From the sequence record NC_023693.1: a stretch of DNA of 64,000 nt; one strand, written 5' to 3'. The stretch is from Escherichia phage phi92. A program made the position numbers and the translations under genes. Of the stretch, positions 28,095 through 61,986 are shown in pieces. The notes below the pieces were generated by a model. It was not told the DNA's origin and did no database searches. It saw only the letters and a list, made by a program, of their open reading frames with translations. The first letter of the stretch is position 1. The number at the start of each line of letters is the position of its first letter.

Positions 28095-28982
28095 GTGTTA
28101 AATACAGCTTCTGGATCATCAGCAGCAGATAAATATGCTGACGATAAAGCTGGAACAGGTACACCAGATAACTACTGGTATGATCTGGATAACACAGCAG
28201 ATGGGCCATGCTTAACTAACTTTATCACTAAAGTCACACCTTATGCAAGTAAGGTTAAAGCAATTATTTGGGGACAAGGTGAAAATGATGCTGTATCAGC
28301 ATCTTCGACTGTTGCAGGTAGGTACAGTAACACTACACGTTACCATGATGCTACGATAGCTATCTTTGATAAGATGCGTACAATAGTTCCTGCTTCTCAA
28401 GCAAAAATTGTTTGGCAGATCCTAGGACGTTCTTATTTATATGGTGTAGAAGTTAATGGTGTGGATTGGCAGAAGTACAGAAATGTACAAAGAACCATCT
28501 CTACAGCACGTGATGATGTTATCATTGGTTCTTGGGTAGATGGTGCTGAACGTTACAGTGGTTATGTTTATGAAGAAGGTATTGATGGTCGTATCCATTA
28601 TATTTCTTCTGTATACCAAACAGCAGCTACAAAACTTGCTAAATCAGCAGCAGACGGTACAGATTTAACATCAACGTCACCTGTTTGGGTTGATATGTCT
28701 GTTCCAACAGGAGGAGCCGCTGTAAGACAAGCTAACCAAGATGTAATTATCTCTTGGGAACCAGCAGGATATACTAAACATTACTTCCGAAATGTAAACG
28801 TCCTCACAGCAGCAATTCTTACAGAACAAACCCTGGATACTAACACTTACACATTTACTTATGCAGATCAGGTTGAACAATATGGATTTGCAGCAGGTAC
28901 AACAGTGTTTGATGTTGCACACTATGATGCTGATAATGACGTGTTATCACCTCTTGTCAGATTTACAGTCAATGTTACATAA
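28095..28982 (+). CDS. hypothetical protein, possible SGNH-like carbohydrate esterase
   Basis: GTG start; motifs WGQGENDA (GxND-like) and DVAHYD (DxxH-like); an upstream open frame in another reading frame contains VIVFAGQDN. Confidence 0.3.
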   Translation: MLNTASGSSAADKYADDKAGTGTPDNYWYDLDNTADGPCLTNFITKVTPYASKVKAIIWGQGENDAVSASSTVAGRYSNTTRYHDATIAIFDKMRTIVPASQAKIVWQILGRSYLYGVEVNGVDWQKYRNVQRTISTARDDVIIGSWVDGAERYSGYVYEEGIDGRIHYISSVYQTAATKLAKSAADGTDLTSTSPVWVDMSVPTGGAAVRQANQDVIISWEPAGYTKHYFRNVNVLTAAILTEQTLDTNTYTFTYADQVEQYGFAAGTTVFDVAHYDADNDVLSPLVRFTVNVT

Positions 28983-32334: not shown

Positions 32335-35300
32335 TCAGTGACAAGTTGACCATGAACTACCAACATCGTAACCAGCAGTGAGAGGTACATTAAGATTGTA
32401 ATACTCACCAGCTTTATTAACAGCGATAGATGCTAATTCTCCAGCACGACTGTAGGCTGTAAACCAACCACCTTTCGGAGATTCATGTACGTTAGCCCAA
32501 ATCTTGCCAGTACGTTTCTCTTCCTCTTCTTTCCAGGCATTAACTTTATCCAAACATTCTTTATCAATTTTCTTTTGTTCCTCTGGATCATCAACTTGAG
32601 TCCAACCTAAAGATTCTTTAGAGAACCATTTAAAATGCACCAGATCACGAGTTACTTCAAGCTGTGCTTCATCGTGATATGCAATCATTTGTTGAACGAA
32701 TGACTTATTTTTCCAGTCATCAACAAAAAAGTCAACAGCTAATCCTTCTTCTTCGATAAGATCGTCGTAGATAACCATTGCTCTTTTTGCACAAATAACA
32801 CCACCACTCTGGAACAGAGAGTTAAGTATTGCGTGTGCAGATCGTGTAGGTACTTTCCTACCATCAATACCAAGAATGTATTTCTTACCTGTTTTAACCC
32901 AAAAATCATGCAGACGTTCTTTAAGAAGCGCAAGAGGTTTTGCAGCTTCCCAGAAAGCATCGTATACAAGCTGTCCTGTATACATATCACTACCTATAGT
33001 TTTTGCTACTTTTGCAGCTTGAGCACCATAAGTAATACCATACTTAACAGATTTAGCAGGGCTTCGTTCAAACTTACGACCAATAGTGTCAGAAATACGT
33101 CGAGCCATCATTGTATGAACATCATTAGGTTTTTCCAATAATAGAGCATTACAATATTCGTGTGGTTCCTGCTCGTACCGCCAACAATTCCCTGTAATCG
33201 TGATGCAGTCTTTCTGACGCATAACCCATGTACCGAGTTCTGTTTGTGGACACCAAACATCTTCTACACCCCATTCTTCAATAGTCAGACTTTGAACAGG
33301 GATGTGAGAGCGGTTAGCCAACGTTGCCACTTTTACTTTCTGGTCTTTCGTATTGAAGGCTACAGAAATATTACCCCCATGAACCAGGTATGAGGCAGTT
33401 AAGGCTGCTTCAAAAAGTTCTCCTGGGTTCTGCGCCCAGCGCCAAACAGGTTTTTGTTTATGTTTGTGCCAGTAACCATCCGCAATCAAAAAACCTTCCA
33501 AGAAAGCCACACGCTCGGCATGAGACATATTAACTACACGTTCTACCCACGGAACATCCCATTTACCTTGTTGAACAGAAGTTAAACTATTTACTTGATC
33601 TTGTTCCATGTTAAATGGAGCATTACAAATAATGTTATCTCCTGTGCAAAGCTCGGCAGTTGTTCTGACTTTAGGCACATAAGTATTCCCTGTACTACGA
33701 GTATTAACATACCAACGGTGATCTGCTGTTGCACGATAAGTATGGGATTTTCCTTTAATCTCAAACGTCTTACTATTTTTATAGAAGACCTTACCTTTTA
33801 CTTTAGTCCATTCTTTAAGTCCTGTTTCTGGGTTATATCCTAAGATTTCATCCCCTTCTTGTAGATCGTGATAACCAACCCAACCTTTACGGGTTAGTGC
33901 TTGTGCATCCATAGGTACACAGTAGTGTGATTCTATTTTTGCCTCAAGAGAATCAAAGTCATAACCAATTTGGAAGTATTTTGGAACTTCTACACCAAAT
34001 AAGTTACGCATTTCATATCCGTACAGAGATGTTACACGTGGGATATTTGCTACTAACCTATGTTTCATACGAGACGTAGCTGCATCACACGTTGCAGCAG
34101 GAGTTGGTATACGACCATCAGCCCTTACTGCTGCCAGATAACCTTTATCGTAATCCTCTTCATCTTCTTCCCAATCAGCACCACCTCCTAGAATAGAGTT
34201 CCTACGGTGTTTATACGTAAGATACTGCACAATCTGCGTAGCATAAGGAAACTTTTCACCTAGTGCTTCCAAGTTAGGACAAATATCTTTCTCTTGCCCT
34301 TTTGTAAAGGAAGGGTTAGTAAGCACTTTAACACCACGACCTTTAGCTTTAGCAATACGATCTCTTAGTTTCCATTCCAAAGTTTCTGGTGTGCACTCCA
34401 GATGATCACATCTGTCCTGGCAGAAGTTAGATGCCAATGTTTGATCAACATAGTCACGAATAGCTTTCTCCATTTGTGCTTCATCTTTCTTAATCTTAGT
34501 GCCAGATTTAAGAGTGATATCTTTATCTTTATATTCAGATGGACTCCAACCTAAACCAACTAACCAGTTTTTAATATGTGTCGTGTCGTCTAAAGTAGCA
34601 GGTACTGTAGGATCACAAATAGGTTCTTCTGCTGGAATAGGTAGTTTAAACTCTTTACCTAAAGCAAATAACCACCAACCATCTTCTTTTTGTACAAGTT
34701 CACCAGAATGTTTCTCTGCAAACTTTATCATGTTACTTGAAGGTTCACCATTCTTTTTAAACTGTAGTTTAGGTGGAATGAATGATTTCAAATAACCTTT
34801 AGTAGCAGGTTTAGGAGGTAGCACAGGTTCTGCCTCTAAACGACATGCTTCCATTCGAGCATCCAGATCACGAATATTATCTTCTGCTTGTTTCATATTG
34901 AAAGCAAAGCCACGGTGCTCTTGACGTGTAATAATATCCGCTACACGTTGTTCTAAGTTAAATGGTTCAGACCACTTATTATAATCACCCCACTCTTCCA
35001 TCAAATAACGGAACACTGCGGTGTTAGCTTTGTTATCGTAAATACAGTAATACAGCATATCTGCTGCAAATGTTTTAAATCTTTCAGTTTCAGGGATATT
35101 TTTTCTAAAATCAATTTTAACATCCCCTCCAGCTTTCTTAGATAACTCTGCCAGACTATGACCACCGAAGCGATCAGGGTTTAGTGTCTTACTTAAGATC
35201 ATAGTATCACAAATTTCAATGTTACTATTACCCCAAGTATTGTACTTAATACTGTAGTTGAGTTTAAAAAATAATTTAATTGCCAGTAAGTCAAAGTTAA

Positions 35301-35649
35301 TGATGTTATGTCCAACTACTTTGGTAATTTTATAGTTTGAATTACCTTTAAATTTACCTGTTCCATTTACAAAATCAGGAAAATCTTTAAGAGGGAAATG
35401 GGTATATTCTAAATGCTCATATTCCTCCAGTCGGTATTCATACTTTCCGTCAGTCTCAACATACGGACGACCATCGAAAAGATATTTATCACCATCATGG
35501 AAAGCAATAATCTCTCCAGTATCATGACTTTCGCACACAATACAGTGCATTGCAAAACTATCTTTTAAACGATATGGACTTGCCAAGTAATCTACACTTT
35601 CGTCATTAAGCAAGTTGTTACTTTCAATGTCGAAAGTAAAAGCTCCCAT
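32335..35649 (-). CDS. DNA polymerase, family A (T7-like) with 3'-5' exonuclease domain; intein-containing
   Basis: Exo I motif FDIES near the N-terminus; motif A-like GYDFDSLEAKIESHY; motif B-like RKFERSPAKSVKYGITYGAQAAK; NDVHT; a ~245 aa insertion between motif A and the following conserved segment. Confidence 0.75.
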   Translation of the reverse strand: MGAFTFDIESNNLLNDESVDYLASPYRLKDSFAMHCIVCESHDTGEIIAFHDGDKYLFDGRPYVETDGKYEYRLEEYEHLEYTHFPLKDFPDFVNGTGKFKGNSNYKITKVVGHNIINFDLLAIKLFFKLNYSIKYNTWGNSNIEICDTMILSKTLNPDRFGGHSLAELSKKAGGDVKIDFRKNIPETERFKTFAADMLYYCIYDNKANTAVFRYLMEEWGDYNKWSEPFNLEQRVADIITRQEHRGFAFNMKQAEDNIRDLDARMEACRLEAEPVLPPKPATKGYLKSFIPPKLQFKKNGEPSSNMIKFAEKHSGELVQKEDGWWLFALGKEFKLPIPAEEPICDPTVPATLDDTTHIKNWLVGLGWSPSEYKDKDITLKSGTKIKKDEAQMEKAIRDYVDQTLASNFCQDRCDHLECTPETLEWKLRDRIAKAKGRGVKVLTNPSFTKGQEKDICPNLEALGEKFPYATQIVQYLTYKHRRNSILGGGADWEEDEEDYDKGYLAAVRADGRIPTPAATCDAATSRMKHRLVANIPRVTSLYGYEMRNLFGVEVPKYFQIGYDFDSLEAKIESHYCVPMDAQALTRKGWVGYHDLQEGDEILGYNPETGLKEWTKVKGKVFYKNSKTFEIKGKSHTYRATADHRWYVNTRSTGNTYVPKVRTTAELCTGDNIICNAPFNMEQDQVNSLTSVQQGKWDVPWVERVVNMSHAERVAFLEGFLIADGYWHKHKQKPVWRWAQNPGELFEAALTASYLVHGGNISVAFNTKDQKVKVATLANRSHIPVQSLTIEEWGVEDVWCPQTELGTWVMRQKDCITITGNCWRYEQEPHEYCNALLLEKPNDVHTMMARRISDTIGRKFERSPAKSVKYGITYGAQAAKVAKTIGSDMYTGQLVYDAFWEAAKPLALLKERLHDFWVKTGKKYILGIDGRKVPTRSAHAILNSLFQSGGVICAKRAMVIYDDLIEEEGLAVDFFVDDWKNKSFVQQMIAYHDEAQLEVTRDLVHFKWFSKESLGWTQVDDPEEQKKIDKECLDKVNAWKEEEEKRTGKIWANVHESPKGGWFTAYSRAGELASIAVNKAGEYYNLNVPLTAGYDVGSSWSTCH
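33187..33921 (-). mobile_element. intein (aa 577-821 of the polymerase ORF) with one LAGLIDADG-like motif
   Basis: Starts with Cys (CVPMD...), TxxH block (TADHRW), LAGLIDADG-like FLEGFLIADGY, ends ...ITGN with +1 Cys (CWRY); removing it restores a contiguous motif A segment. Confidence 0.6.
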
Positions 35650-37930: not shown

Positions 37931-38200
37931 CTAAAATGATTCGTTTGTCTCCATAATATATTGCATTTCCAAATCTTCCATATGTTTCTTAAATTGGTAA
38001 ACAATTTCCGATGGGGAAATATCTATATCAAAAAGTTCTTTTGTACCAGAATAAAATCTAATACCATCAACAATAAGACCACCATAATAATCCCAATCAC
38101 TTTCTCGTGAGAAAGGATTAGGTTCTTCATAATAGTAATCTACTTCAACAATAATAGGTTCTTTATTATCTTGTTTATACTCAAAATCAAAAGTGTTCAT
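37931..38200 (-). CDS. hypothetical protein
   Basis: 89 aa acidic ORF. Confidence 0.4.
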   Translation of the reverse strand: MNTFDFEYKQDNKEPIIVEVDYYYEEPNPFSRESDWDYYGGLIVDGIRFYSGTKELFDIDISPSEIVYQFKKHMEDLEMQYIMETNESF

Positions 38201-39144
38201 TATAAATCCTCGATAAGCAGTCTGCGGGTTTCATTTAAATCATCAATATTGTAGTTATCTCTTACATACTTAGCAAGAGCCAATCCTTTCTCAATACAAA
38301 CATCAGGAGATTCGATTAAGTATTCTACAATATCTTTCCACTCTTTAACTGAATCAGCAAAGAAGATTAGATCTTTAAATTCTTCAGTATAGTAGTTCTC
38401 TCGTGGTGAACAAACGAGTGGCAAACCTTTAGCACCAGCTTCAAGAATTTTTAAATTACTTTTGGCATTATTAAAATGATTATTTACTAATGGAGCTATG
38501 GAGATTTGATGACCATCGTATGCTTCCATATAACACTCATAAGGACGAATACCTTCATAAACACAACCTGGTTGAATATCTTCTTTAATTTGCAACCATT
38601 GAGCACTACTTAACTCTTCGTGATCTCTACGAAATCCACATAAAGTTAAATCTTTACCAAAATCAGGAAGAATTGCTAAATCATGTTTATGTGTTTCACT
38701 TCCCGCCCAAACTAGTGGACTTTTAGAATAACGGTCTTTAGTAAGAACAAACTGTCCTTCATCAAAAGGTAATCCGTTAGGCACAATATGTACATTATCA
38801 TTGTATTGGCTTAATTCAACCTTTAATGCCGGAGTTGTTGTGGTTACAAGATCGCTTCTTTCAAGGAACCATTTTAGGTCATCTCGGATTTGATTTTCAA
38901 ATAGTCCTTCAAGCATATGCCCTTCAGGAATAATTAAAGAATCATCCAGATCCATTACCAATTTAAACCCAATTTGTTTAAGAGCCAGGAAACCTGGCTT
39001 TCCACGTGTTGGTACTCCATTGAACACAAAAATATTATGCTTAGGATTAATGGTCAGTTTGCGTTTATATGGCAAAATGATTCTATGAAAATCACATACA
39101 CTATACTTTTCATTTCCGCGTGTGTCAAGAATAATATTAGGCAT
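38200..39144 (-). CDS. putative glycosyltransferase, GT-B fold-like (paralog 1)
   Basis: C-terminal KSNLKILEAGAKGLPLVCSP resembles the nucleotide-sugar-binding helix of GT-B enzymes; clear paralogy with the adjacent gene (CDFHRI.., WAGSETH.., LKILEAGAKGLP). Confidence 0.4.
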   Translation of the reverse strand: MPNIILDTRGNEKYSVCDFHRIILPYKRKLTINPKHNIFVFNGVPTRGKPGFLALKQIGFKLVMDLDDSLIIPEGHMLEGLFENQIRDDLKWFLERSDLVTTTTPALKVELSQYNDNVHIVPNGLPFDEGQFVLTKDRYSKSPLVWAGSETHKHDLAILPDFGKDLTLCGFRRDHEELSSAQWLQIKEDIQPGCVYEGIRPYECYMEAYDGHQISIAPLVNNHFNNAKSNLKILEAGAKGLPLVCSPRENYYTEEFKDLIFFADSVKEWKDIVEYLIESPDVCIEKGLALAKYVRDNYNIDDLNETRRLLIEDL

Positions 39145-39155
39145 ATAACTCCTTG

Positions 39156-40169
39156 TTAAAGACTTTCAATAACTTGACGACGCAGTTCATTGGCATCTGC
39201 AAGATTATAATTAAGACGAACGTGTTCTGCAAGCATCATACCACGATCTTCTGTGTATCTAGGATTCCTAATTAGCTTGACAACTTCATAGTGCCAAGAT
39301 GCTTTAGAGTCTGCATAGATAACAGCCTTTGCATCTACCGGATTGAAGTACGGCAGCACAGGAGAACAGATAATAGGAAGACCCTTTGCACCTGCTTCCA
39401 AAATCTTCAAATTGCTTTTACAGTTGTTGAAGTCATTATCTACCAGAGGAGCAATTGCAATACTATGACCGTCATACACAGACATATACTCACCTAAATT
39501 TTTAATAGCTGGTTTATACTGTGCATTTGGAATTTTACGTTTTATTTTAACCCACTCCGCAGTAGTTAGATACTGACTATTATTTCCAACAGGTGCAGAA
39601 GGATACACTTCATACCCTGCAATTGTCAATAGTGTATCATCAAATGTATTAGCTACAAGAGATAAATCAGGCTCATGGCTTGCTCCTCCAGCCCAGATAA
39701 TAGGTGTGTCAGAACTACGGTCTTTTGTCAAAGTAAATTGACCTTCGTCGTAAGGTAGTGCGTTTCTAATTACGACAACATTACGATTTAAATGACGAAT
39801 TTTGTAAGCTAGGTATTCTGTTGTTACAGTAACAACATCTGCTAACTTAACCATCTCTACAATAGTCTTTGAATGATTAGTAAATACGCCAGCCATATAA
39901 TGTTCAGGATTAAGTGAATAAAAGTCATCTAAATCAACAATAATCTTAACACCTTGTGCCTTCAGGCGTTTAACCTCGTCTGCTCCACGAGAATACACTC
40001 TATTAAAAACTAAAACGTCTTTCTTAGGTTTAAATGTATTTCCAGCAAATGGCATTACAATACGATGGTAATCACAACCACTGCCTAACTTATTATCACA
40101 CTTAAGTACAGGAGTATTAGGATTTACCATATTTTTGAGCCTCCTCATAAGAGATAAAAGTTTTACCAT
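39156..40169 (-). CDS. putative glycosyltransferase, GT-B fold-like (paralog 2; start uncertain)
   Basis: Shares CDYHRI, IWAGGASHEPDL and LKILEAGAKGLPIICSP blocks with 38200-39144; an internal ATG at 40130 aligns better with the paralog N-terminus. Confidence 0.4.
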   Translation of the reverse strand: MVKLLSLMRRLKNMVNPNTPVLKCDNKLGSGCDYHRIVMPFAGNTFKPKKDVLVFNRVYSRGADEVKRLKAQGVKIIVDLDDFYSLNPEHYMAGVFTNHSKTIVEMVKLADVVTVTTEYLAYKIRHLNRNVVVIRNALPYDEGQFTLTKDRSSDTPIIWAGGASHEPDLSLVANTFDDTLLTIAGYEVYPSAPVGNNSQYLTTAEWVKIKRKIPNAQYKPAIKNLGEYMSVYDGHSIAIAPLVDNDFNNCKSNLKILEAGAKGLPIICSPVLPYFNPVDAKAVIYADSKASWHYEVVKLIRNPRYTEDRGMMLAEHVRLNYNLADANELRRQVIESL

Positions 40170-40803
40170 TGCGAAGATCCTCCAGAGATTGTTTATATTG
40201 TTCCCAGTTTACACCAATCCCCTGTTCTTTCTCTTCTTTTGACAGATTCGCAAAAGGTAAAGGATTGTCTCCAAACACATCATCAGGATGGATAAACGCC
40301 ATAATTCGAATAGGACATGGCACGCCTTGAATACCTCGGTTCAAACCTGCCAGTGGAACGCGATGAATCCACTCTGCATCTTCATATCCATAACCGTGGG
40401 TGTATGAGCGGAAATAGCCAGCTTTCTCAATAACTGCACGGGAATACATACCAAACTGGCACATACCTAGTTCCCAAATAACCACTTCCCCTTCAATACC
40501 TTTTACTTTATCTTTAAAGTATTCAGGCATACCAAAGAAATCCCAACCATTTTCCTTCGCCTGTTTTACAAAATATGTTTCCCAACCTGGAACAACAGGA
40601 TAACAATCATCATCAAAAATAAACCAGTAGTCATACCCTTCATCATAAAACTTTTTCATCAGTTCATTACGGGCATATGCAACACCTTTTCGTTCACGAT
40701 CATACTGTACAACAAAAGTAGCATTAGGATCAGTTACAAGATAATCTTTAAGAGGACGCTTACCTACAGTAATAACACCAACACCAATTTTTGTATTTTC
40801 CAA
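40117..40803 (-). CDS. glycosyltransferase, GT-A fold-like (DxD)
   Basis: YWFIFDDDCYP (DxD motif) and HGYGYEDAEW; TTG start with AAGGAG RBS. Confidence 0.5.
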   Translation of the reverse strand: MENTKIGVGVITVGKRPLKDYLVTDPNATFVVQYDRERKGVAYARNELMKKFYDEGYDYWFIFDDDCYPVVPGWETYFVKQAKENGWDFFGMPEYFKDKVKGIEGEVVIWELGMCQFGMYSRAVIEKAGYFRSYTHGYGYEDAEWIHRVPLAGLNRGIQGVPCPIRIMAFIHPDDVFGDNPLPFANLSKEEKEQGIGVNWEQYKQSLEDLRNGKTFISYEEAQKYGKS

Positions 40804-40812
40804 AATAACTCC

Positions 40813-41376
40813 TTAAATAATTTTATTCATGTCTTGACAATGTAAAAGGTGTGAAACAGCTTTTCTAGGATCATCATTACCTAAACGGTATGTGTGAAAT
40901 AAATATAACCCACGTAGTAAACCTAGCCTTTTATTGTTAGCGTGCAATGCTTTAGAGAAAATTATATCAAACTGTATTGATCTTTCCTCAAAAGGAATTT
41001 CATTCCACAGACTCTTACGAAAGAGAAGAAAGAATCCTGCTAAGATAGCATCTGTAGGTACTTCCTCTATTGAGTTTCCCCATTCTAGATGTGCTCTTTT
41101 TGCAATCTCAATGTGGTGTAATATATTCGGATCTTCACTTCTTTCATTATTAAATAATTGATATGTTGATCCCAATCTGTTACAAGATGCACCAAGAACA
41201 TCAAAATCAGGATTTGAACGGACAATTGATTCCAGCCAAGCAGGTTGTTCTGGAAGAAGAAACATTGTATCAATGTCTCTTAGGCAAATCCAACTATCTT
41301 CTGGTAAGACACTTATTGTGTCATTGATACCTTTTCCAATATCTCCAGAAAGATAGGGAGTTATGTGAAATATCAT
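40813..41376 (-). CDS. hypothetical protein, possible glycosyltransferase-like
   Basis: 187 aa; contains CLRDIDTMF (DxD-like); weak evidence. Confidence 0.3.
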   Translation of the reverse strand: MIFHITPYLSGDIGKGINDTISVLPEDSWICLRDIDTMFLLPEQPAWLESIVRSNPDFDVLGASCNRLGSTYQLFNNERSEDPNILHHIEIAKRAHLEWGNSIEEVPTDAILAGFFLLFRKSLWNEIPFEERSIQFDIIFSKALHANNKRLGLLRGLYLFHTYRLGNDDPRKAVSHLLHCQDMNKII

Positions 41377-41433: not shown

Positions 41434-41628
41434 CTATTGATTACGTTTTGCGAGTTCCATTTGGATAGCTAAACTGTGATCTCGTGCTTCCATATATTCT
41501 TTATATGTTTCATTAAGATGATCACGACAAACATCACGCAGTTTAATCAGTTTATCTGTAGGGATACCACTAAGATCATCCCAAGATTTTACAACTTCAC
41601 CAGTATCATTGATCCCAATGGTTTTCAT
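41434..41628 (-). CDS. hypothetical protein
   Basis: 64 aa ORF. Confidence 0.35.
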   Translation of the reverse strand: MKTIGINDTGEVVKSWDDLSGIPTDKLIKLRDVCRDHLNETYKEYMEARDHSLAIQMELAKRNQ

Positions 41629-41884
41629 CTACAACCTCCTTAATTGCTACAGCACAGTTTTTGCAGATACACTGCCCTTTACCTTTAGAAATCTGGATGT
41701 AAGGTTCATTTTCATTTTCGCCCTTACGTGAGTCATATATTACAGAATTGAAGCACACAACGCAAATATTTTTTAAGATTGTATACTTATCAACTTTCTT
41801 TTTTGTTTTAAAGTTAACTTCAATAACATCAGCCATCAGTGTAACACTCCCAGTATGTTGCTTTGTGACATAACCATAGAACAT
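41606..41884 (-). CDS. zinc-ribbon protein
   Basis: 92 aa with CVVCFN...CICKNC cysteine pairs. Confidence 0.4.
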   Translation of the reverse strand: MFYGYVTKQHTGSVTLMADVIEVNFKTKKKVDKYTILKNICVVCFNSVIYDSRKGENENEPYIQISKGKGQCICKNCAVAIKEVVDENHWDQ

Positions 41885-42114
41885 TCAACATTATCGTGAC
41901 TACGTGAAAAACGTTCCCAAACATCTTCATCGACTCGTAAAGCTATACAAGGATAGACGTTATCATTGATCATTTCAATTGAATAAACATCCACATTGTC
42001 TTCGTCTTCGATGAACATCATTGCAAACTGTTCTAAATGTTTCCTAATGTAATGTACATCCTCTTCTGTAAGACCAATAACAAGATAACTTGCAACGATA
42101 ACGCCATCTTTCAT
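41836..42114 (-). CDS. hypothetical protein
   Basis: 92 aa acidic ORF. Confidence 0.4.
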   Translation of the reverse strand: MKDGVIVASYLVIGLTEEDVHYIRKHLEQFAMMFIEDEDNVDVYSIEMINDNVYPCIALRVDEDVWERFSRSHDNVECSMVMSQSNILGVLH

Positions 42115-43348: not shown

Positions 43349-43372
43349 TAAAATATGCGCCCCGAAGGGCGC
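43349..43372 (-). terminator. intrinsic terminator downstream of terD
   Basis: GCGCCC-ttcg-GGGCGC followed on the - strand by ATATTTT. Confidence 0.5.
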
Positions 43373-43381: not shown

Positions 43382-43978
43382 TTACTCGAACCAATCGTCG
43401 CCAGCGCCAAACGCTTTAACTACATCGTAAATATCAAGCCCAGCTTTACCCACACCATACGCTTTCAGTTTCCATTCGCTATCTTCTCGCACCAGGGAGG
43501 CAACGTGGCAAATGGTGTTACCTGCAAGTTCTGGAGCCAAGAAGTCAAAGTCCAGCAGTTCAACATTACGTTCATCATCGAAGATTTTAAGGAAACCTTC
43601 GGTAGCGTGACCAAGGCGTTTCTTACCCGTTTCGTCATCAATAGTAATTACGAATGCAATTTCCTGTGCTTCAGCAGAGATATTATCCAGTGTAACATCA
43701 ATCTGCTCCATTTGTCCTACACCGTCACGAACATCTTCACCTGCAAAAGTAGAACGTTCAGGATCAAATTTCTGTGCGTAGCATACCAGGTGGCGAGGAG
43801 ACAACAGTTCCGGCAGACCAGATGCATTGTGTCGGCAAATCAGAGCACTAACATCCAGATCCAGTTTTTCGTTAGATTTCCAAGAGAATTCCAGACGAAT
43901 GCGTTTCAGTGCTGGTGCGATCTTTTTCAGGGAAACTTTTTCGCTAGAACCTTTTTTCAGGGAAATTTTCTGAGTCAT
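43382..43978 (-). CDS. terD: TerD-family stress protein
   Basis: N-terminal ISLKKG...VSLKK, DLDVSA, FVITIDD and EWKLKAYG blocks match the TerD domain as I recall it; AAGGAG RBS. Confidence 0.6.
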   Translation of the reverse strand: MTQKISLKKGSSEKVSLKKIAPALKRIRLEFSWKSNEKLDLDVSALICRHNASGLPELLSPRHLVCYAQKFDPERSTFAGEDVRDGVGQMEQIDVTLDNISAEAQEIAFVITIDDETGKKRLGHATEGFLKIFDDERNVELLDFDFLAPELAGNTICHVASLVREDSEWKLKAYGVGKAGLDIYDVVKAFGAGDDWFE

Positions 43979-44015
43979 AATTTATTATCTCCTTTGTTGT
44001 TAATTTACGTTGTCT

Positions 44016-44043
44016 ATTTTACTAATCTTTTCTACAAAGTCAA
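44016..44043 (-). promoter_or_regulatory. sigma70-like promoter (-35 TTGACT, 16 nt spacer, -10 TAAAAT)
   Basis: On the - strand upstream of terD; TTGACT is the complement of 44038-44043 and TAAAAT of 44016-44021. Confidence 0.5.
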
Positions 44044-44050
44044 GCGTTTT

Positions 44051-44845
44051 TTACGCTTTTGCTCCGAATTTTTTAACCCACTCACCAAACTCTTCGGATA
44101 ACAGTTTATCGTAAAGTTCTTCGTCAGACAAGGACAAATCTGCAATACCGATAAAATCAACATTATCGTATTCTTTTGCCAAGTCTTTCAGGAATTTAAA
44201 GTTTGCATTACCTACACCAACCATAAACCAGTAAACAGGAGTGTTGCGGTGTTTGTTCAGCAAACTACGTACTGCTGAAGTATCCATGTTCTCCCCGTCA
44301 GTTTGGAAGAAAATCATTGCAGGAGTACGATCAACTTGTGCATCAGTATCTACAACCTGTTCTACAACAGTACGTGTAACTTCTACACGTTCTTTTTTAC
44401 CAGTTAGTTTAGCAAGGAAACCCTTAGCCGGAACTTCTTCATACTCAACGACTTCGCGTGTAATATTTTTCATAGGTACACTACCGAAGTATGTATCATA
44501 GATCTCTTGCATTACTGGGGCATAAGCTGTACCACCATTGATGCAAACATTAGACATACAAGAGCCGACATAATCATCATATACATCAGCCGTTGCGGGA
44601 GGCAGTTCAAAAGAAGAACTATTGAAAGCCCACATGTCAATCTGTGCATTATCATCAAATTTCATACCAAACGGCAGCAGCTTACCTACAAAATCACTAA
44701 CAGTGCCATCACGATACAGCTCACACATACTACCCGAAATATCTAAGGCGCTACCGACACGAAGAACAACATCGTTAATCTTTTTCTTACGCAGAGATAC
44801 GGTAAGAGTTTCTTGACGTTTTTTAAGACTGATTTTATTGGACAT
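44051..44845 (-). CDS. von Willebrand factor A domain protein (TerY-like)
   Basis: MIDAS motif DISGSM, downstream GGT and FQTDGE; TerD-like N-terminal ISLKK...VSLRK segment. Confidence 0.55.
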   Translation of the reverse strand: MSNKISLKKRQETLTVSLRKKKINDVVLRVGSALDISGSMCELYRDGTVSDFVGKLLPFGMKFDDNAQIDMWAFNSSSFELPPATADVYDDYVGSCMSNVCINGGTAYAPVMQEIYDTYFGSVPMKNITREVVEYEEVPAKGFLAKLTGKKERVEVTRTVVEQVVDTDAQVDRTPAMIFFQTDGENMDTSAVRSLLNKHRNTPVYWFMVGVGNANFKFLKDLAKEYDNVDFIGIADLSLSDEELYDKLLSEEFGEWVKKFGAKA

Positions 44846-44846
44846 A

Positions 44847-45116
44847 TTATTTCTCCTTTCTGAGTGTAATGTTAGTAACTTCTAAATCCACTTCTACCAT
44901 TTCTGTATCATATGAAATACAGCTAAGTTGACCTCTTTGTGAACCGTTCAGACACATTGCTTGGTTTGTATTAACCTTAATAAACACTAAGTTTCTGAAC
45001 GTATCTAAACCAGCATCTTGATAGGCAACATAATATACAAATGTATCACCTGCGTCAAGTTCTCCAAAACATTTAGGTTCATCTGATTCGTCGTCTTTGA
45101 TATTAAATTTAAGCAC
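44847..45116 (-). CDS. hypothetical protein
   Basis: 89 aa ORF. Confidence 0.4.
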   Translation of the reverse strand: MLKFNIKDDESDEPKCFGELDAGDTFVYYVAYQDAGLDTFRNLVFIKVNTNQAMCLNGSQRGQLSCISYDTEMVEVDLEVTNITLRKEK

Positions 45117-45672
45117 TATCTTCTCCTTTACCTACTTTCAAGCCTAAATAGAAAGCCTCTCTAGTGATTTTTTGCAACTCGTTTAAAGAGATAGTTACAA
45201 CTAAATCATCTTCAATTTCTAGTTTTGAGTCTTCTTCTGTCTCAATGCAAGTATTATGCACTTTGTGGTAAGGATTGTCAACACGTTTAAATTTATTATT
45301 TTCAGTGCTGAAGAAGCAATCTGGATCTTCTTCCCCATCACCCCAACCCTGGTTAGGATCTTCTTCAGATCTTTCTGTTGGGATCTCACCTGTAAAGTGT
45401 TCTTCTAATACCAGAGCAATCCCATCTCCAAGATCGGAAGAGAACATCAAATTACAAACTTCTTCCCAAGGCATAGACCACTTAAATCTTTTACGATTGC
45501 CATGTTTATCTTCTTCGTTAGAGAAAACACTACCATAGCTATCATAATTCCCATACATCTCTTCGACAACCTTACCACCTTTCAAAAGAAATAGGTAGCA
45601 AGGAGAGCCATCGAAAGAGGTAGAGAGAGCAGCATTACCAGACTCTTTGCACAAGAAACTAAAACACCCCAT
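45109..45672 (-). CDS. hypothetical protein
   Basis: 187 aa acidic ORF. Confidence 0.4.
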   Translation of the reverse strand: MGCFSFLCKESGNAALSTSFDGSPCYLFLLKGGKVVEEMYGNYDSYGSVFSNEEDKHGNRKRFKWSMPWEEVCNLMFSSDLGDGIALVLEEHFTGEIPTERSEEDPNQGWGDGEEDPDCFFSTENNKFKRVDNPYHKVHNTCIETEEDSKLEIEDDLVVTISLNELQKITREAFYLGLKVGKGEDSA

Positions 45673-45872
45673 TATACACCAGCCTTAAGATCAATTAAAG
45701 CCAAAGTTGTTTCAGAGTGTGTTTGCTCGTCTACAGGCGCAGTCATATGATAATACAAAAAATCTTCGGCATCATACCAATCTGATTCTTGACCTTGTTT
45801 CCAACCATCAATGAAAGCATCTTCCATAATGGTTTGCAATTCTTCACGAGTTAAGTGAATATCTTTACTCAT
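45672..45872 (-). CDS. hypothetical protein
   Basis: 66 aa ORF with start/stop coupled to neighbours. Confidence 0.35.
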   Translation of the reverse strand: MSKDIHLTREELQTIMEDAFIDGWKQGQESDWYDAEDFLYYHMTAPVDEQTHSETTLALIDLKAGV

Positions 45873-46105
45873 TACACATTCTCCTCTTTTACCAATTCCA
45901 TCGTTGAATTGTCAAAACCATCTTTAGAAGAATAGGTATAGACAGAACGTAGTTCTCGCAGGACAGTGAATACATTAGGATCATCTAACCAAGCATCCTG
46001 GAGGAGAACATAACGATCTTCATTGTCATACTGAACAGCAATCATAGAACCAGACAGTTTGTAAATTTTAATATTCATAATATATTTCTCCTTAAAGTAG
46101 ACCAC
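45872..46105 (-). CDS. hypothetical protein
   Basis: 77 aa ORF. Confidence 0.35.
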   Translation of the reverse strand: MVYFKEKYIMNIKIYKLSGSMIAVQYDNEDRYVLLQDAWLDDPNVFTVLRELRSVYTYSSKDGFDNSTMELVKEENV

Positions 46106-47195
46106 GTTTAACAGTTTGAATCATACCATCTTCAAGAGATTGCACTTCTTGAATGTAATCAATACGGGCAGCACGGGCTTCAGTGTTGATTCGGTTAGTT
46201 TCTTCCAACATTTTAACTAAGTTTTCTTGATCACGACGTAATGTTTCAATATCCAATACTTGACGATTAGCAAGTTGTGTAGCTTCAATTTGGTTTTGTG
46301 CAGCCAGATCACTACCCATTGCAATAGCAGCATTAAATTCATTCAGTACATTGTTCTGTGTATCGGCTGCTTTCTTCTGGCGTAGACTTTCAATATACAT
46401 AGAAAAGTTTGCAGAGTAAGCAGGGATAACATTATTCACAATATTACGGGCTGATCGCATCAAACTTGCAGATACTTTCTGCATACTTTGTACACGTGGC
46501 CCCATCTGAACACACAGTAAGCGTAAGGCTTTCAGGTCTGCAATACGAATTTCAAGCAGATCCATAGTATCACGAGTACGCTGACGCTCTTCTACGTCAT
46601 TTTCAGGCAGTGTATTAAGGCGAATTTCTTCTTTTTCATAAGTAGCTGTTAGAAGCTCTATATCTCTGTTTAAGCTAAGAGCATATTTTGCAATAGCCTC
46701 TTCTAAACGTTGCAGATATCGTAAAGAATCTTCTTCTTTTTTCAAGTCTGTTTGGAGTGTCTTTACCAAACCTTCAATACGGTTATTAATGGTGTCAAAT
46801 TCTCCAAACAAATCTTCTTTCATACCTAAAACTTTTTTAACTAGTTTACCTAAACCTTTAGATTGTTTAATAGAGTTAGGATCAAGTTGCTTTGCTTGCT
46901 TAATAAGTGCAGTTAAACGTTCACTCATTTCATCTCCCTGAGATGAACGCTGGTGTTTAAGCACTTCAGCATTAAGGTTACGAAGAGTAAGTCCTGCATC
47001 AGCACCAACCTGTTCAATCTCTTCACGCGACATTGGAGGCAGCATTTGTACAGGTCGTGCAACAGCAGGGGCATATACAGGGCTTGCATCCATAGCACTT
47101 GGAGCAAACAAAGACTTACTTTTTTCTGTTGTTGCCGTGAATACACTCATTTCAGACGGTTTGCTTTTTACGGCACTGATAAAAGGACTGGACAT
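46092..47195 (-). CDS. telA: TelA-like (toxic anion resistance) protein
   Basis: 367 aa, highly alpha-helical; C-terminal VLDIETLRRDQENLVKMLEETNRINTEARAARI resembles the conserved TelA/YceH C-terminal block; GGAGGA RBS. Confidence 0.5.
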   Translation of the reverse strand: MSSPFISAVKSKPSEMSVFTATTEKSKSLFAPSAMDASPVYAPAVARPVQMLPPMSREEIEQVGADAGLTLRNLNAEVLKHQRSSQGDEMSERLTALIKQAKQLDPNSIKQSKGLGKLVKKVLGMKEDLFGEFDTINNRIEGLVKTLQTDLKKEEDSLRYLQRLEEAIAKYALSLNRDIELLTATYEKEEIRLNTLPENDVEERQRTRDTMDLLEIRIADLKALRLLCVQMGPRVQSMQKVSASLMRSARNIVNNVIPAYSANFSMYIESLRQKKAADTQNNVLNEFNAAIAMGSDLAAQNQIEATQLANRQVLDIETLRRDQENLVKMLEETNRINTEARAARIDYIQEVQSLEDGMIQTVKRGLL

Positions 47196-47263
47196 TCAAT
47201 TTCCTCCATATTCTTTAGTAAATGGTGATACCTCTGTACCACCATCATAACACAAATTAAGTA

Positions 47264-48133
47264 TTAAACAAACATATCTAAATAATTTGTAGTAATAAAT
47301 GCTCCATCTGCTTCCAGATTAACATAACCAGTAGCATTAGTGGTTAAGAAATCCAGATCGAAGGACTCTTTAACACCCCGTACCTCAACACGAGAGATAT
47401 CGAATACAGGTAGTGTAACAGCCTCTTCGTGCAATACCGTACCTTTGTAGGTTGCCTTAATGATAAACTTGATATTACCTGTTCCAGCATCATATAAAAC
47501 ACTTTCAAACCCTTTGAGAGTATATTTATCACCAGAGGTGAAGTGCAAAGTTGCTTTGTTTACAGTACGGTTCTTACGAGGAGTTCCTTTCACACGTTTA
47601 TGATCACTACGTCTTTTGCATTTAGGAATGAATACAAACGATACACTCTCAAGAAAGGTATCAACATCAAGGATTTTAATATCCTCTGTTGCAGCAAATT
47701 TTGAAGTAGTTGCATCAAAATGCTTTTCCCTGCGATCATACATAAAGATATCAAACCGATCTTCTAAATCAAACCGATCTTCTAAATCAAACAAATTATG
47801 CAGTTTAATTTCAGAATGCTTGCACATTGCAGCAACCTTAAACTCTTCAAAACGTGGGTGTTCTACAAGTTCTTCAAGTTTTACACCAAAGACAGTATAT
47901 TGTTTCGAAGTTTTTTCTGGTGTTGGCATTACAGAAGCATAATCACCGATTGCGCTCTTAAAGCAAAATTGTTCTTGACCTGTATTTTTACCAACGAATT
48001 TACAGTATTCGTCATCGTGCATACTTTCCTGGGTAGTACCAACAAACTCAAAACCATCTTTATTCTTCTCAAGGATTTCTTGATTAAAGATCCAACCTTC
48101 CAGGCGATATACTTTACCAACTTCTAGTTTCAT
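47264..48133 (-). CDS. hypothetical protein (contains an 18 bp tandem duplication)
   Basis: 289 aa; internal DLEDRFDLEDRF encoded by the tandem repeat at 47751-47786. Confidence 0.4.
   Translation of the reverse strand: MKLEVGKVYRLEGWIFNQEILEKNKDGFEFVGTTQESMHDDEYCKFVGKNTGQEQFCFKSAIGDYASVMPTPEKTSKQYTVFGVKLEELVEHPRFEEFKVAAMCKHSEIKLHNLFDLEDRFDLEDRFDIFMYDRREKHFDATTSKFAATEDIKILDVDTFLESVSFVFIPKCKRRSDHKRVKGTPRKNRTVNKATLHFTSGDKYTLKGFESVLYDAGTGNIKFIIKATYKGTVLHEEAVTLPVFDISRVEVRGVKESFDLDFLTTNATGYVNLEADGAFITTNYLDMFV
47751..47786. repeat. perfect 18 bp tandem duplication (TCAAACCGATCTTCTAAA x2, plus a partial third copy)
   Basis: Positions 47751-47768 and 47769-47786 are identical; in frame within the CDS. 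Confidence 0.8.
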
Positions 48134-48168
48134 CTGTTTCTCCTTCTTATTTAATCTGTATTAAATTA

Positions 48169-48774
48169 TTAACGACGACGTGAGCTACTAAAACTACGTT
48201 TCGACGAAGAATAACTTTTCGAAGACTTACTATAAGAGCTAATAGGGCTTGAGTAAGACTTACGAGCAGAGTAATCACTATTCACTTTCGTTGTTGATGG
48301 GCGTGAATACGTTTGTACACTTTGCTGCTTAATTGTGTTTTGTTTAGTGGTTGTATATGTATTTCCTTGTTTATCATAAAAACTATGCTTTTGTGTTGTA
48401 TATGCTTTACTGTTAGTTGTAGGAGCAGCGTTGTTATTAATAATTGTTGTGTTGCTACCACCATCTCTATAACCGCCACCGCCACTATTACCACTCAACA
48501 TATGACCAAGAAGCATACCTGTAGCAAACTCACCTACACCAGAAGAACCACTGCCGCCTCCTTGCACAACAACTGTTGAAGGTTGTGCAGGTGCTGCTTG
48601 AACAACTTGAGGTGCAGGCTGATTTACATATTGTTCATCTACCATCTGATTTGGTGTTTGTTGGTAACGTTGATTTTGTACATTTTCAGAATCATCACAA
48701 CCTACCAGCAATGCACTACCTAAAACAACTGCAACAATAAAAGATTTAATGTTTTTCATTTGTAACCCTCTCAT
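48169..48774 (-). CDS. putative lipoprotein with low-complexity Ser/Tyr-rich C-terminus
   Basis: Signal peptide with lipobox-like LLVGC; Gly-rich stretch; C-terminal SYSSPISSYSKSSKSYSSSKRSFSSSRRR. Confidence 0.45.
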   Translation of the reverse strand: MRGLQMKNIKSFIVAVVLGSALLVGCDDSENVQNQRYQQTPNQMVDEQYVNQPAPQVVQAAPAQPSTVVVQGGGSGSSGVGEFATGMLLGHMLSGNSGGGGYRDGGSNTTIINNNAAPTTNSKAYTTQKHSFYDKQGNTYTTTKQNTIKQQSVQTYSRPSTTKVNSDYSARKSYSSPISSYSKSSKSYSSSKRSFSSSRRR

Positions 48775-48952
48775 TTAAAGTCTCAACACAATTTTTAAAA
48801 TCCCTAGAGAAACAATACATCTGTTCTCCGTTCCTGTTGATAGTAATTGTATGGTTATCAATATATGTTGTCAAGATAAAAATCAAACAAAACAACCCTA
48901 GAGCAAAACAAATATTTTCAAACAGAATCCAAAGAACACGTAAAACCACCAT
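48746..48952 (-). CDS. small membrane protein
   Basis: 68 aa with an N-terminal hydrophobic helix. Confidence 0.35.
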   Translation of the reverse strand: MVVLRVLWILFENICFALGLFCLIFILTTYIDNHTITINRNGEQMYCFSRDFKNCVETLNERVTNEKH

Positions 48953-48967
48953 CAGATCACCTCAACA

Positions 48968-48985
48968 AAGCCCCCGAAGGGGCTT
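48968..48985 (-). terminator. GC hairpin, possible terminator downstream of terC
   Basis: AAGCCCC-cgaa-GGGGCTT, weak T-tract. Confidence 0.4.
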
Positions 48986-48991
48986 AATGAA

Positions 48992-49969
48992 TTAAGCAAC
49001 AGTCTGGTCTTCTTTTTCAGGGAAGATTAAACTTGCAACAACACCCAACCCAAGAGTACCTAACACAATATACATACTGATCGTCGGATCAATGTGTGCT
49101 GGCAGGAAACTGGCTTTTGCGTGCAGAGTTTCTGCAAACGGGTGATACATCAGTTTTACACCCACAAACACCAGGACTACGATAACTGCTTTCTCCAGAT
49201 GAACCAAATATTTCAGTGCAACACTAAGGACAAAGAACAGAGCACGTAGACCTAAGATTGCACAGAGCATCGAAGAGAACACTAGCAGAGGTTCTTGTGT
49301 CACTGCAATCACTGCTGGAACAGAGTCTACTGCAAAGATTACGTCAACCATTTCCATTACAAACACACAAACCAGAGCCGGAGTTGCTACACGAACACCA
49401 TTTTTGATTGTGAAGAACTTCTCACCATCCATCTGATCAGATACAGGGAACAGCTTACGAACAATGCGAGTAGCCCAGTGTTTAGAGTAATCAACTTCTG
49501 CATCATTATCTCCAGCGAATACCATTTTAGCCGCACAGAAAAGGATGACAGCACCGAAGAAGATATTAACATACCAGCCCAAACTCAACAAGTAAGTACC
49601 TACTGCTACAAACACACCTCGGAAGACAATCGCACCTGCAATACCCCAAAGTAGAATCTTGTGCTGCAAGTGTGTGCTTTTAATACCAAAACTTGCGAAT
49701 ACTGCTACAAATACTACTAAGTTATCTACAGAAAGAGATTTCTCCAACACATACCCACTCAAGAACAAGCTCGCAAAATCAGCACCGTGTTGGAAGTATA
49801 CAAAACCATAGTAGGCTAATGATACCCCAATCCAGAAAATTGACCAGCCAATTGCAGATTTAAATGAAATTTCTTTGTTTTCTCTGTGTCCAAAGAAATC
49901 AATACAAATCGACAAGACTAAAATACCCACTAAAACAACCACATCAATAATTGGGAAACCCAGTTGCAT
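48992..49969 (-). CDS. terC: TerC-family integral membrane protein
   Basis: Multiple TM helices and the characteristic EKSLSVDNL segment. Confidence 0.6.
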   Translation of the reverse strand: MQLGFPIIDVVVLVGILVLSICIDFFGHRENKEISFKSAIGWSIFWIGVSLAYYGFVYFQHGADFASLFLSGYVLEKSLSVDNLVVFVAVFASFGIKSTHLQHKILLWGIAGAIVFRGVFVAVGTYLLSLGWYVNIFFGAVILFCAAKMVFAGDNDAEVDYSKHWATRIVRKLFPVSDQMDGEKFFTIKNGVRVATPALVCVFVMEMVDVIFAVDSVPAVIAVTQEPLLVFSSMLCAILGLRALFFVLSVALKYLVHLEKAVIVVLVFVGVKLMYHPFAETLHAKASFLPAHIDPTISMYIVLGTLGLGVVASLIFPEKEDQTVA

Positions 49970-50046
49970 TCTTTTCTCCTCTTTAATGCGGAGGACAATC
50001 CTCCGCTCTATGTCGTATACTATAAACTGTTTTTAAAGAAAGTCAA

Positions 50047-50295
50047 CTAGTTCAGTTCTGTAATTTTAAGTTTATCTTCTTTGTTAATGATAGGGAAAGC
50101 TACAGCATCACCTACATCATCAATAAAGCAAATAGCAAGACCACCTTCCACTTTGCTAACCTGACCATTAAAGGCGTGATACGGGGCAGGAACAATATCT
50201 CCATCTTCAAGGAGAATAGCCTCATAAACCTTACCAATAGTACAATCACGAGTGTTTTTAAATTTTTCAAGCACTTCAACATTTACTTTACGCAT
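50047..50295 (-). CDS. hypothetical protein
   Basis: 82 aa ORF. Confidence 0.4.
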   Translation of the reverse strand: MRKVNVEVLEKFKNTRDCTIGKVYEAILLEDGDIVPAPYHAFNGQVSKVEGGLAICFIDDVGDAVAFPIINKEDKLKITELN

Positions 50296-50309
50296 ATAAA
50301 GATCCTCTC

Positions 50310-50516
50310 TTATTTGTTAGATTGAAAGATACCACGAAGTACCGCAAGAATGAACGTCACACAGACTACACTCCAAAACGTTACAGGAACATGATGCCAG
50401 TCTAAACCGATAATGTCAATCATATAGTTGTATGCTAAAAGCAGTAGCCAACTAGGGATTAACACAATCAAGAACACAACAATAAAACAACCTAATACTG
50501 CTAAAACACCTGCCAT
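50310..50516 (-). CDS. small membrane protein
   Basis: 68 aa, two hydrophobic helices. Confidence 0.4.
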   Translation of the reverse strand: MAGVLAVLGCFIVVFLIVLIPSWLLLLAYNYMIDIIGLDWHHVPVTFWSVVCVTFILAVLRGIFQSNK

Positions 50517-50525
50517 ACTTTCTCC

Positions 50526-51242
50526 TTATTTCAGTTTGTAAACAATTACATTTAAACCTTTGTTCACTAGAGTTTCTTCGATCATAAGTTTTACAATATT
50601 CCAAGAACCTCCAGCCAAACCACAACCAAGCATTGGTAAACCTACAATTTTACCGCCTGAAGATACAACATCGTCTCCCATACTATCTAACGCATTGTAG
50701 ATAGCTTCATAATTCAGGTCACGCTTACCTTCCTCACGACGACTATAACCATATTGTCCATATAAATTATAAATTGTCAAATTGTTTTCTGTATACTTAG
50801 TAAACGTACCTAATTTTTTATAATCACCACGTTTAGTGGCACAATCTGCTTTAAACGCACCAGGCCACTTGCTTTTAATTTTTGGTGCAATACCACTACC
50901 CATAGTGCAAAAACAGTTACAGCAGTGTGCTATAGCGTCTATATCGCCTCTCTCGGCTGCTGCTAAAAGATCACCGTATACCTCAATGATACCTGCTGGA
51001 TAACTTGTTACAATTTCATCTTCCCAGTACATTTGCTCTACACCACCGATCAGTGCAAAGTTTTGTGTAATGCGATCATCAATATAATTAAGACCTGAAA
51101 CATACACAGCATATTCATCCTGTGCTGTAATACCTTGTACACGAATTCTTAAGACACCATCTTTATCTGTTGCTACACGCCCAAAATCTTTTTCTGTAAT
51201 ATTGGTGATAGGATCTCCGAAAGTCGTCACTTTATTAGACAT
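50526..51242 (-). CDS. macro domain protein (ADP-ribose binding/processing)
   Basis: IDAIAHCCNCFCTMGSGIA and LGCGLAGG resemble macro-domain Gly-rich loops; start taken at the internal ATG (MSNKV...) that overlaps the upstream stop (ATGTCTAA); the ORF track extends to 51359. Confidence 0.45.
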   Translation of the reverse strand: MSNKVTTFGDPITNITEKDFGRVATDKDGVLRIRVQGITAQDEYAVYVSGLNYIDDRITQNFALIGGVEQMYWEDEIVTSYPAGIIEVYGDLLAAAERGDIDAIAHCCNCFCTMGSGIAPKIKSKWPGAFKADCATKRGDYKKLGTFTKYTENNLTIYNLYGQYGYSRREEGKRDLNYEAIYNALDSMGDDVVSSGGKIVGLPMLGCGLAGGSWNIVKLMIEETLVNKGLNVIVYKLK

Positions 51243-61985: not shown

Positions 61986-61986
61986 T

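Follow-up and report, generated by a model that had tools for sequence, protein, structure and literature searches.

A conserved cluster of four glycosyltransferase genes in Escherichia phage phi92 and its possible role in glycosylating a non-DNA acceptor

We analysed a 64,000-nucleotide stretch of the genome of Escherichia phage phi92 (NC_023693.1), referred to here as the window, and focused on four adjacent glycosyltransferase (GT) genes that occupy positions 38200-41376 on its minus strand. A first-pass annotation, made from the sequence alone, had described this block as two tandem GT-B paralogs followed by a DxD-type GT-A enzyme and a further DxD-like protein. All of the open reading frames (ORFs) lie at the coordinates that it claimed, and every motif that it quoted was found. 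The four genes, with product lengths in amino acids (aa), are:

38200..39144, minus strand: GT-B1, 314 aa, with a GT4-like fold; paralog of GT-B2
39156..40169, minus strand: GT-B2, 337 aa, the tandem paralog; 41% identity to GT-B1 (E 5e-82) and a match to phrog_7162 (E 7e-149)
40117..40803, minus strand: GT-A, GT2-like, 228 aa; invariant R16, DDD64-66 and YGxED138-142
40813..41376, minus strand: small GT2-like GT-A, 187 aa; match to phrog_14179 (E 6e-113) and family alignment

The paralogy of the two GT-B genes was borne out by their sequence identity. GT-B has two Rossmann domains and a C-terminal nucleotide-sugar binding helix, and is GT4-like in the sense of the Glycos_transf_1 clan, while the Pfam matches of GT-B2 fell below the cutoff. 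The top structural neighbours included a Pgl transferase, WlaC, PimA/PimB, WaaG, TarM and HepE; further neighbours with the GT4 fold were BshA, MshA-like enzymes and the sucrose-phosphate, trehalose and maltose-1-phosphate synthases. Seventeen bacterial GT4-type enzymes matched GT-B better than the T4 alpha- and beta-glucosyltransferases (AGT and BGT), which ranked 18 and 28. LpxB, from which the public annotation “putative disaccharide synthase” derives, was rejected for these proteins, as neither its sequence nor its structure gave a match. The predicted isoelectric points of GT-B2 and GT-B1 are 8.9 and 5.2, respectively; this property was uninformative as a discriminator of function, since T4 AGT is itself acidic. 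With its listed start, GT-B2 shares 53 nucleotides (nt) with the 3' end of the GT-A gene, and use of an internal start at Met14, as in the homolog P0023, would reduce the overlap to 14 nt.

The two paralogs diverge chiefly in their N-terminal, acceptor halves. Some related phages carry homologs (P0012 and P0013) in which a single GT-B is chimeric, with an N-terminal half resembling GT-B2 (62-70% identity) and a C-terminal half resembling GT-B1 (76-77%). Judged by their sequences, these chimeras look like products of recombination between tandem paralogs at a conserved interdomain segment. Such natural chimeras are consistent with interchangeable donor domains.

The remaining two proteins are GT-A enzymes, as the first-pass annotation had proposed. 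The 228-aa protein is predicted to adopt a GT-A fold (pLDDT 87.4), and R16, D64-D66 and the YGxED block are invariant in its family alignment; with this fold and its DxD metal/nucleotide-sugar motif it qualifies as a GT2-like GT-A enzyme. The model resembles GlfT2, GalNAc-T1, chondroitin polymerase, beta4GalT7, TarP, the Listeria rhamnosyltransferase RmlT and SpsA. The RmlT match is to the L. monocytogenes enzyme and the SpsA match to a form bound to deoxythymidine diphosphate (dTDP), although such fold matches do not by themselves identify the donor. The 187-aa protein matched no Pfam model. Its family comprises 1220 relatives in a profile search of 1.84 billion representatives, and its invariant residues are D34xD36, N66, R67, H88, W124, E131, D137, H161, Y163, R164 and H176. 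Among the matches listed, about one third of the relatives carry the domain in fusion with a further GT domain (mostly TOD1_MUCI70, also GT2) or a methyltransferase, and in these fusions the domain homologous to the 187-aa protein matches Glyco_tranf_2_3, Glyco_tranf_2_5 or Glycos_transf_2. The two GT-A proteins gave no match to each other by BLASTP, and their families were not significantly similar by hhalign (probability 0.7%), though the DxD motifs were aligned.

Searches of sequence databases with the four proteins yielded little: none matched an NCBIfam model, and single-sequence and profile searches against PDB sequences gave no meaningful match. In BFVD, a fold search of viral proteins brought up nothing but generic viral GT2 and GT25 proteins, with no DNA-modifying enzyme among them. 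All four proteins have negative hydropathy and no Pfam membrane-domain match. Taken together, the folds, motifs and family matches confirm that all four proteins of the cluster are glycosyltransferases.

As a set of genes the cluster is not new, being already annotated in public genomes. A 3.8-kb region around the cluster is 98-99% identical in nucleotide sequence, over its full length, to at least 51 deposited genomes of Justusliebigvirus (phi92-like phages, Stephanstirmvirinae), the best match being Escherichia phage alia (NC_052655). The cluster as annotated in Justusliebigvirus and Phapecoctavirus (alia, EmilieFrey) comprises essentially the same genes in the same order, with no substantive difference. 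RefSeq labels all four genes “glycosyltransferase”, while in the BASEL phage EmilieFrey (bas61_0046-0049) two are “putative disaccharide synthase” and two “putative glycosyltransferase”; these public annotations are computational. Several records named “Campylobacter phage” (among them MG065656, MG065639 and MG065689, ~146 kb) show 98.7-100% amino-acid identity to the GT-B and RmlC queries, the same as in E. coli Justusliebigvirus genomes, and the 3.8-kb DNA query likewise matches four records of this kind. Probably their host label is wrong or they are contaminant phages.

A likely sugar donor is suggested by a second locus of the same phages. The rmlABCD genes, which encode the dTDP-L-rhamnose pathway, lie outside the window; in the 98%-identical EmilieFrey genome all four pass the NCBIfam equivalog cutoffs and sit ~70 kb from the GT cluster, between the glutaredoxin and NrdAB genes. 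The complete pathway is assigned to the phage through genomes that are 98-99% identical. Of 50,697 phage records, 142 contain GT-B (52 at ≥95% identity and 74 at 60-80%) and 168 contain RmlC (53 at ≥95% and 77 at 60-80%). The two agree in counts per identity band and in genera (Justusliebigvirus, Phapecoctavirus and Klebsiella phages resembling KP2025), an agreement of bands and genera rather than of individual records. The divergent Klebsiella phage KP2025 (PP919962; L093/L094) keeps the 187-aa GT and one GT-B at the equivalent position, and its member of the 228-aa GT-A family is relocated to the early-gene region (94204-94836). Its rml locus encodes only the committed enzymes RmlC and RmlD, and neither RmlA nor RmlB was found within the ~80% of the genome covered, so that KP2025 may depend on its host for dTDP-4-keto-6-deoxyglucose. 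Given the co-occurrence of GT-B and rml genes, dTDP-L-rhamnose is very likely the donor for at least one of the cluster transferases.

Which acceptor receives the sugar is a harder matter. The first-pass annotation had favoured sugar hypermodification of DNA, an idea proposed for these phages by Olsen et al. 2020 on the basis of the complete dTDP-rhamnose pathway (PMC7552041). Under this explanation, the GTs would rhamnosylate or otherwise glycosylate a hydroxylated base of the phage DNA, perhaps only at rare, sequence-specific sites. Gene position agrees with it, as the cluster adjoins primase/helicase and DNA polymerase genes, and the genome also encodes a Dcm-like C5 methyltransferase. The 228-aa GT-A has weak matches to phrog_842, the PHROG of the T-even beta-glucosyl-HMC alpha-glucosyltransferase, and to Pfam PF20691 TAGT (E 6.6e-5), the family of trypanosome JGT-like phage GT-A enzymes, with which it shares the GT-A fold. 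It also has the R...DDD...ED pattern of DNA-modifying phage GT-A enzymes (bioRxiv 10.1101/2023.12.21.572611). However, the TAGT score is 23.4 bits against a Pfam cutoff of 27.5 and covers residues 16-75 only, and the R...DDD...ED pattern is common among GT2-like enzymes. The third motif differs as well, being EDY/F in TAGT and ED-x-x-(W/Y) in the 228-aa family, where the invariant E141-D142 is followed by A/S/T/I/V, with an aromatic residue two or three positions on.

A further argument against DNA as the acceptor is that no partner enzyme was found. The characterised phage DNA glycosylations all start from a hydroxylated pyrimidine (PMC13326640; bioRxiv 10.1101/2023.12.21.572611). One route to it uses a ThyA homolog and gives 5-hydroxymethylcytosine, 5-hydroxymethyluracil or the recently described 5-hydroxycytosine (PMC13326640); the alternative is a TET/JBP dioxygenase acting on 5-methylcytosine or thymine (Pyle et al. 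preprint, bioRxiv 10.1101/2023.12.21.572611). The first-pass annotation had seen no base-hydroxymethylase gene in the window, and a tblastn search with T4 gp42 agreed, detecting no ThyA homolog there. Extending the search to the rest of the genome, by way of the near-identical EmilieFrey, gave none either (best E 8), and the sole thymidylate synthase of EmilieFrey is of the ThyX/Thy1 type. No Tet_JBP/2-oxoglutarate (2OG) oxygenase match was obtained in ORFs around the cluster, in those beside the Dcm-like gene or in a subset of the larger hypothetical ORFs, a scan that left out small ORFs and several hypothetical ORFs longer than 120 aa. The T4 AGT/BGT systems have a dCMP hydroxymethylase partner, whereas none is found here. 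TAGT systems have a neighbouring 5-methylpyrimidine dioxygenase and C5 methyltransferase, whereas neither adjoins the phi92-like cluster in the ORFs scanned: the Dcm-like methylase lies ~60 kb away, while known pathways are clustered (bioRxiv 10.1101/2023.12.21.572611). In addition, T4 AGT and BGT have no sequence similarity to GT-B, and the structural comparison did not prefer them.

The decisive evidence against DNA modification comes from the BASEL plating data, which describe the phages of the phi92 type as “exceptionally susceptible” to restriction-modification “despite a putative dTDP glycosylation machinery” (PMC8594841; echoed in PMC10844046). With restriction-sensitive phages and no base-hydroxylating enzyme found, the function favoured by the first-pass annotation is not supported, and we consider it very unlikely. 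A GT pair without an enzyme that creates a DNA hydroxyl has no acceptor in canonical DNA, which points to proteins or glycans instead.

Next, we considered the relatives of the cluster for indications of the acceptor. The GT-B family is scarce in a word-indexed protein search (57 matches), and a pattern scan of IMG/VR recovered at least 549 relatives. When the neighbours were clustered, the 228-aa GT-A family proved the most frequent, standing next to GT-B on its strand in 44 of 79 loci. A large terminase gene lies ~3 kb downstream, again on the same strand, in 28 of the 79, and portal, capsid, prohead protease and tape-measure genes recur further out among the matches listed. Again, no ThyA homolog was found, either within 10 kb in 83 viral loci or within ~7 kb of GT-B at those bacterial and prophage loci that were examined, and no TET-type oxygenase was among the recurrent neighbours in the 25 of 38 Pfam family matches listed. 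In Streptomyces phage KimJongPhill, genes for a UDP-glucose dehydrogenase, a methyltransferase and a GT directly precede the terminase gene. Among 23 bacterial-genome loci, four Pseudomonas prophages carry GT-B. In three prophages (L098, L099 and L104), the gene directly upstream of GT-B is a strong match to the 228-aa GT-A family (E ~1e-77). In L097-L099, GT-B ends ~10 nt, ranging from a few to ~30 nt, before an ORF of 195-207 aa, which is a Terminase_2 small subunit in the single example scanned (L097, a prophage without a detected GT-A). This placement just ahead of the terminase ORF suggests late lytic expression rather than lysogenic conversion.

The bacterial homologs have a different kind of neighbour. 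In Burkholderia dolosa and two Trinickia species (L100, L101/L005 and L103), the gene order is an inverse-autotransporter adhesin, a 555-571-aa protein and then GT-B. These adhesins are of the intimin/invasin type, with IAT_beta, Invasin_D3 and Big_1 domains. In a metagenome contig (L095), a pertactin-type autotransporter gene runs divergently from GT-B at a distance of ~1.6 kb; two small ORFs separate the pair, and further GT genes, three in number, follow downstream. The bacterial homologs are found near adhesin genes and not in lipopolysaccharide (LPS) or O-antigen loci. Where GT genes stand next to genes for autotransporter adhesins, as with TibC/TibA and Aah/AIDA-I, their products are cytoplasmic glycosyltransferases of proteins. 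The arrangement of adhesin, 555-571-aa protein and GT-B, together with that of the metagenome contig, suggests an adhesin glycosylation system that has not been described before. No homolog of the 555-571-aa protein or of the Burkholderiaceae adhesins was found in the phage genome. The phage GT-B also differs in sequence family from the TibC/Aah heptosyltransferases and from GtfA/Gtf3 and SdgA/B of Gram-positive adhesins, and the adhesin likeness of its family is a matter of gene context at a few loci.

Herein, we propose that the cluster encodes four soluble cytoplasmic enzymes, two GT4-like GT-B paralogs whose acceptor domains have diverged and two GT2-like DxD GT-A enzymes, the latter presumably metal-dependent and inverting. 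The four would act in sequence and build a short glycan of up to ~4 sugars on a conserved non-DNA acceptor. L-rhamnose, from the phage's own dTDP-L-rhamnose pathway, would make up at least one of them, and the rest would come from nucleotide-sugars of the host. We infer that the acceptor is most likely a protein, since relatives occur with terminase genes and bacterial homologs with adhesin genes. It would probably be a virion protein, such as a subunit of the capsid, tail or fibre, that receives its glycan in the cytoplasm before the particle is assembled or while this takes place. Cytoplasmic glycosylation of proteins, probably virion proteins, is the best explanation of the data, to which we assign a probability of roughly 40%; the first-pass annotation had not raised it. 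In this respect the cluster would act like known multi-GT glycan-assembly modules, and in particular like the virion glycosylation by virus-encoded GTs that is known for mycobacteriophages and chloroviruses (work cited in PMC12619734).

The cluster differs in several respects from the virion-glycosylation systems already described. No specific sequence homology to the known virion systems (mycobacteriophage Che8-type, chlorovirus PBCV-1 A064R and the Mimivirus fibril) was shown, and no glycosylated virion protein is known in the phi92-like group. Moreover, the GT genes of phi92 are not in a late structural or packaging operon: the cluster lies between replication and Ter genes. The distant relatives of the GT-B/GT-A pair do stand beside late structural and packaging genes, in many viral contigs and prophages. 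A broader version of the proposal would hold that phi92-like and phAPEC8-like coliphages, together with many Gram-negative phages and prophages carrying the GT pair ahead of the terminase, decorate virion proteins with a phage-built rhamnose glycan, and that in Burkholderiaceae the targets of this GT-B family are autotransporter adhesins. We offer this version tentatively and would sooner expect it to fail than to hold in full.

The surroundings of the cluster bear on two further explanations. On its low-coordinate side are a conserved 89-aa ORF, whose start/stop abuts GT-B1, a T7-like primase/helicase gene and the family-A DNA polymerase gene. On the other side, three small conserved ORFs are followed by a gene for a SleB-like secreted cell-wall hydrolase and then by a Ter-type cluster. 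The GT genes are co-oriented with the replication genes, the SleB-like hydrolase gene and the Ter-type cluster. The 89-aa ORF is possibly co-transcribed with the GT genes. KP2025 has an 87-aa ORF at the equivalent position, and three small ORFs likewise occupy the position upstream of its GT cluster. A scan for promoters and terminators was not above chance (71 sites against 59 ± 8, and 11 against 9.5); one GC-rich hairpin (43357-43372) lies between TerD and the next ORF. The Ter-type cluster, directly upstream of the GT genes on the minus strand (43382-52759), is near-complete, and its genes are “hypothetical” in EmilieFrey and mostly so in public records. The same synteny of Ter and GT genes is present in KP2025. 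The flanking features are:

37931..38200, minus strand: conserved 89-aa ORF directly downstream of GT-B1; phrog_4240 (E 8e-35)
41434..42114, minus strand: three small conserved ORFs (64, 92 and 92 aa) directly upstream of the cluster; phrog_5932, phrog_15360 and phrog_16257
43382-43978, minus strand: TerD, Ter-type cluster
44051-44845, minus strand: vWA-TerF, Ter-type cluster
46092-47195, minus strand: TelA, Ter-type cluster
48992-49969, minus strand: TerC, Ter-type cluster
50526-51359, minus strand: Macro, following the Ter genes
51235-52092, minus strand: ComF-like PRTase_3, following the Ter genes
52085-52759, minus strand: HAD hydrolase, following the Ter genes

Contiguity and shared orientation with the SleB-like hydrolase, the Ter genes and the Macro, PRTase and HAD genes, seen alike in KP2025, would fit remodelling of the host envelope. 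In that case the GTs would transfer sugars, rhamnose among them, onto a conserved glycan that is lipid-linked or part of the envelope (LPS core, enterobacterial common antigen, NGR glycan or an undecaprenyl-linked intermediate), and so block superinfection, or adsorption of progeny to infected cells and debris, alongside the Ter system. Iyer et al. 2021 interpreted phage Ter genes as superinfection exclusion and clusters of GT and nucleoside diphosphate-sugar genes as diversification of surface polysaccharides (PMC7824862). Phi92-like phages take surface glycans as receptors, and the best structural neighbours of GT-B include the lipid-linked and polysaccharide GTs named above (from the Pgl transferase to HepE). 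However, the annotated EmilieFrey genome contains no flippase, polymerase, ligase or initiating phosphoglycosyltransferase, and the four GTs themselves lack membrane features, as described above. The genes are 98-99% conserved across phages from hosts with differing O-antigens and capsules, and near-identity across such hosts favours a constant acceptor. The contexts of the relatives do not fit either: in prophages the pair belongs to the late packaging operon rather than to a moron expressed in lysogeny, and the bacterial homologs stand beside adhesin genes. We regard envelope remodelling, which corresponds to the cell-surface alternative of the first-pass annotation, as unlikely but as the chief rival to protein glycosylation.

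The Ter-associated PRTase_3, HAD and Macro genes also invite a second explanation, in which the GTs would glycosylate a metabolite, such as a nucleoside-like compound that these very genes have been proposed to make, or a host protein during takeover or counter-defence. The structural neighbours of GT-B include enzymes acting on small molecules (BshA, the MshA-like enzymes and the three sugar synthases). The association does not extend far, however: among the matches listed, the GT-A/GT-B pair of other phages, close relatives excepted, is without Ter, PRTase and HAD neighbours. Four transferases also exceed the usual number for one metabolite, and we consider this explanation quite unlikely.

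Outside the GT cluster, differences between the window and EmilieFrey were noted at the following loci. The family-A DNA polymerase gene (32335-35649, minus strand) has a 244-aa in-frame insertion at ~33187-33918, absent from the EmilieFrey ortholog, with flanks that are 99-100% identical to it. The insertion starts with Cys (CVPMDAQ) and ends in ...ITITGN followed by Cys, the pattern expected of an intein; it had no match among PDB sequences. A UvrD/Rep-like helicase ORF (59211-62024, minus strand) is 937 aa long against 578 aa in EmilieFrey. Its 342-aa in-frame insertion at ~60192-61217 begins CVSENTVL and ends ...EILSHN followed by Cys, making it a second intein candidate by its terminal residues. 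A group I intron at 55789-56063 (Rfam RF00028, 70.6 bits, gathering score 50) divides nrdD, the gene for anaerobic ribonucleotide reductase, into two exons (~56018-56902 and 54800-55738, minus strand), and the EmilieFrey gene is uninterrupted. Finally, the fibre locus (27320-28982, plus strand) holds two shorter ORFs of 202 and 295 aa, where EmilieFrey has one 2.8-kb lateral tail-fibre gene (bas61_0035) with intimin-like and glycosidase domains. This locus thus differs from EmilieFrey while the GT cluster stays 98-99% conserved.

For annotation, the lesson of the phi92 cluster is that GT genes beside replication genes should be taken as a sign of DNA hypermodification only when an enzyme that hydroxylates the base is encoded as well. 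What the analysis of gene context adds is the possibility of virion glycosylation in coliphages and of a family of GTs acting on adhesin and virion proteins. If true, glycosylation of virion proteins would be the first such system described for phages of Gram-negative hosts, and together with the adhesin loci it would establish a new family of GTs that modify proteins in the cytoplasm. If the GTs instead remodel the host envelope, they would form a superinfection-exclusion device working with the phage Ter system. Either outcome would account for the presence of four GTs and a complete dTDP-rhamnose pathway in restriction-sensitive phages, a question in the literature since 2020. Effects of virion glycans on immunogenicity, serum clearance, stability and adsorption have been reported for glycosylated mycobacteriophages. 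The host ranges of Justusliebigvirus and Phapecoctavirus are among the broadest of coliphages, and both are therapeutic candidates; were their virions to carry a glycan coat, the same properties could be affected in these phages.

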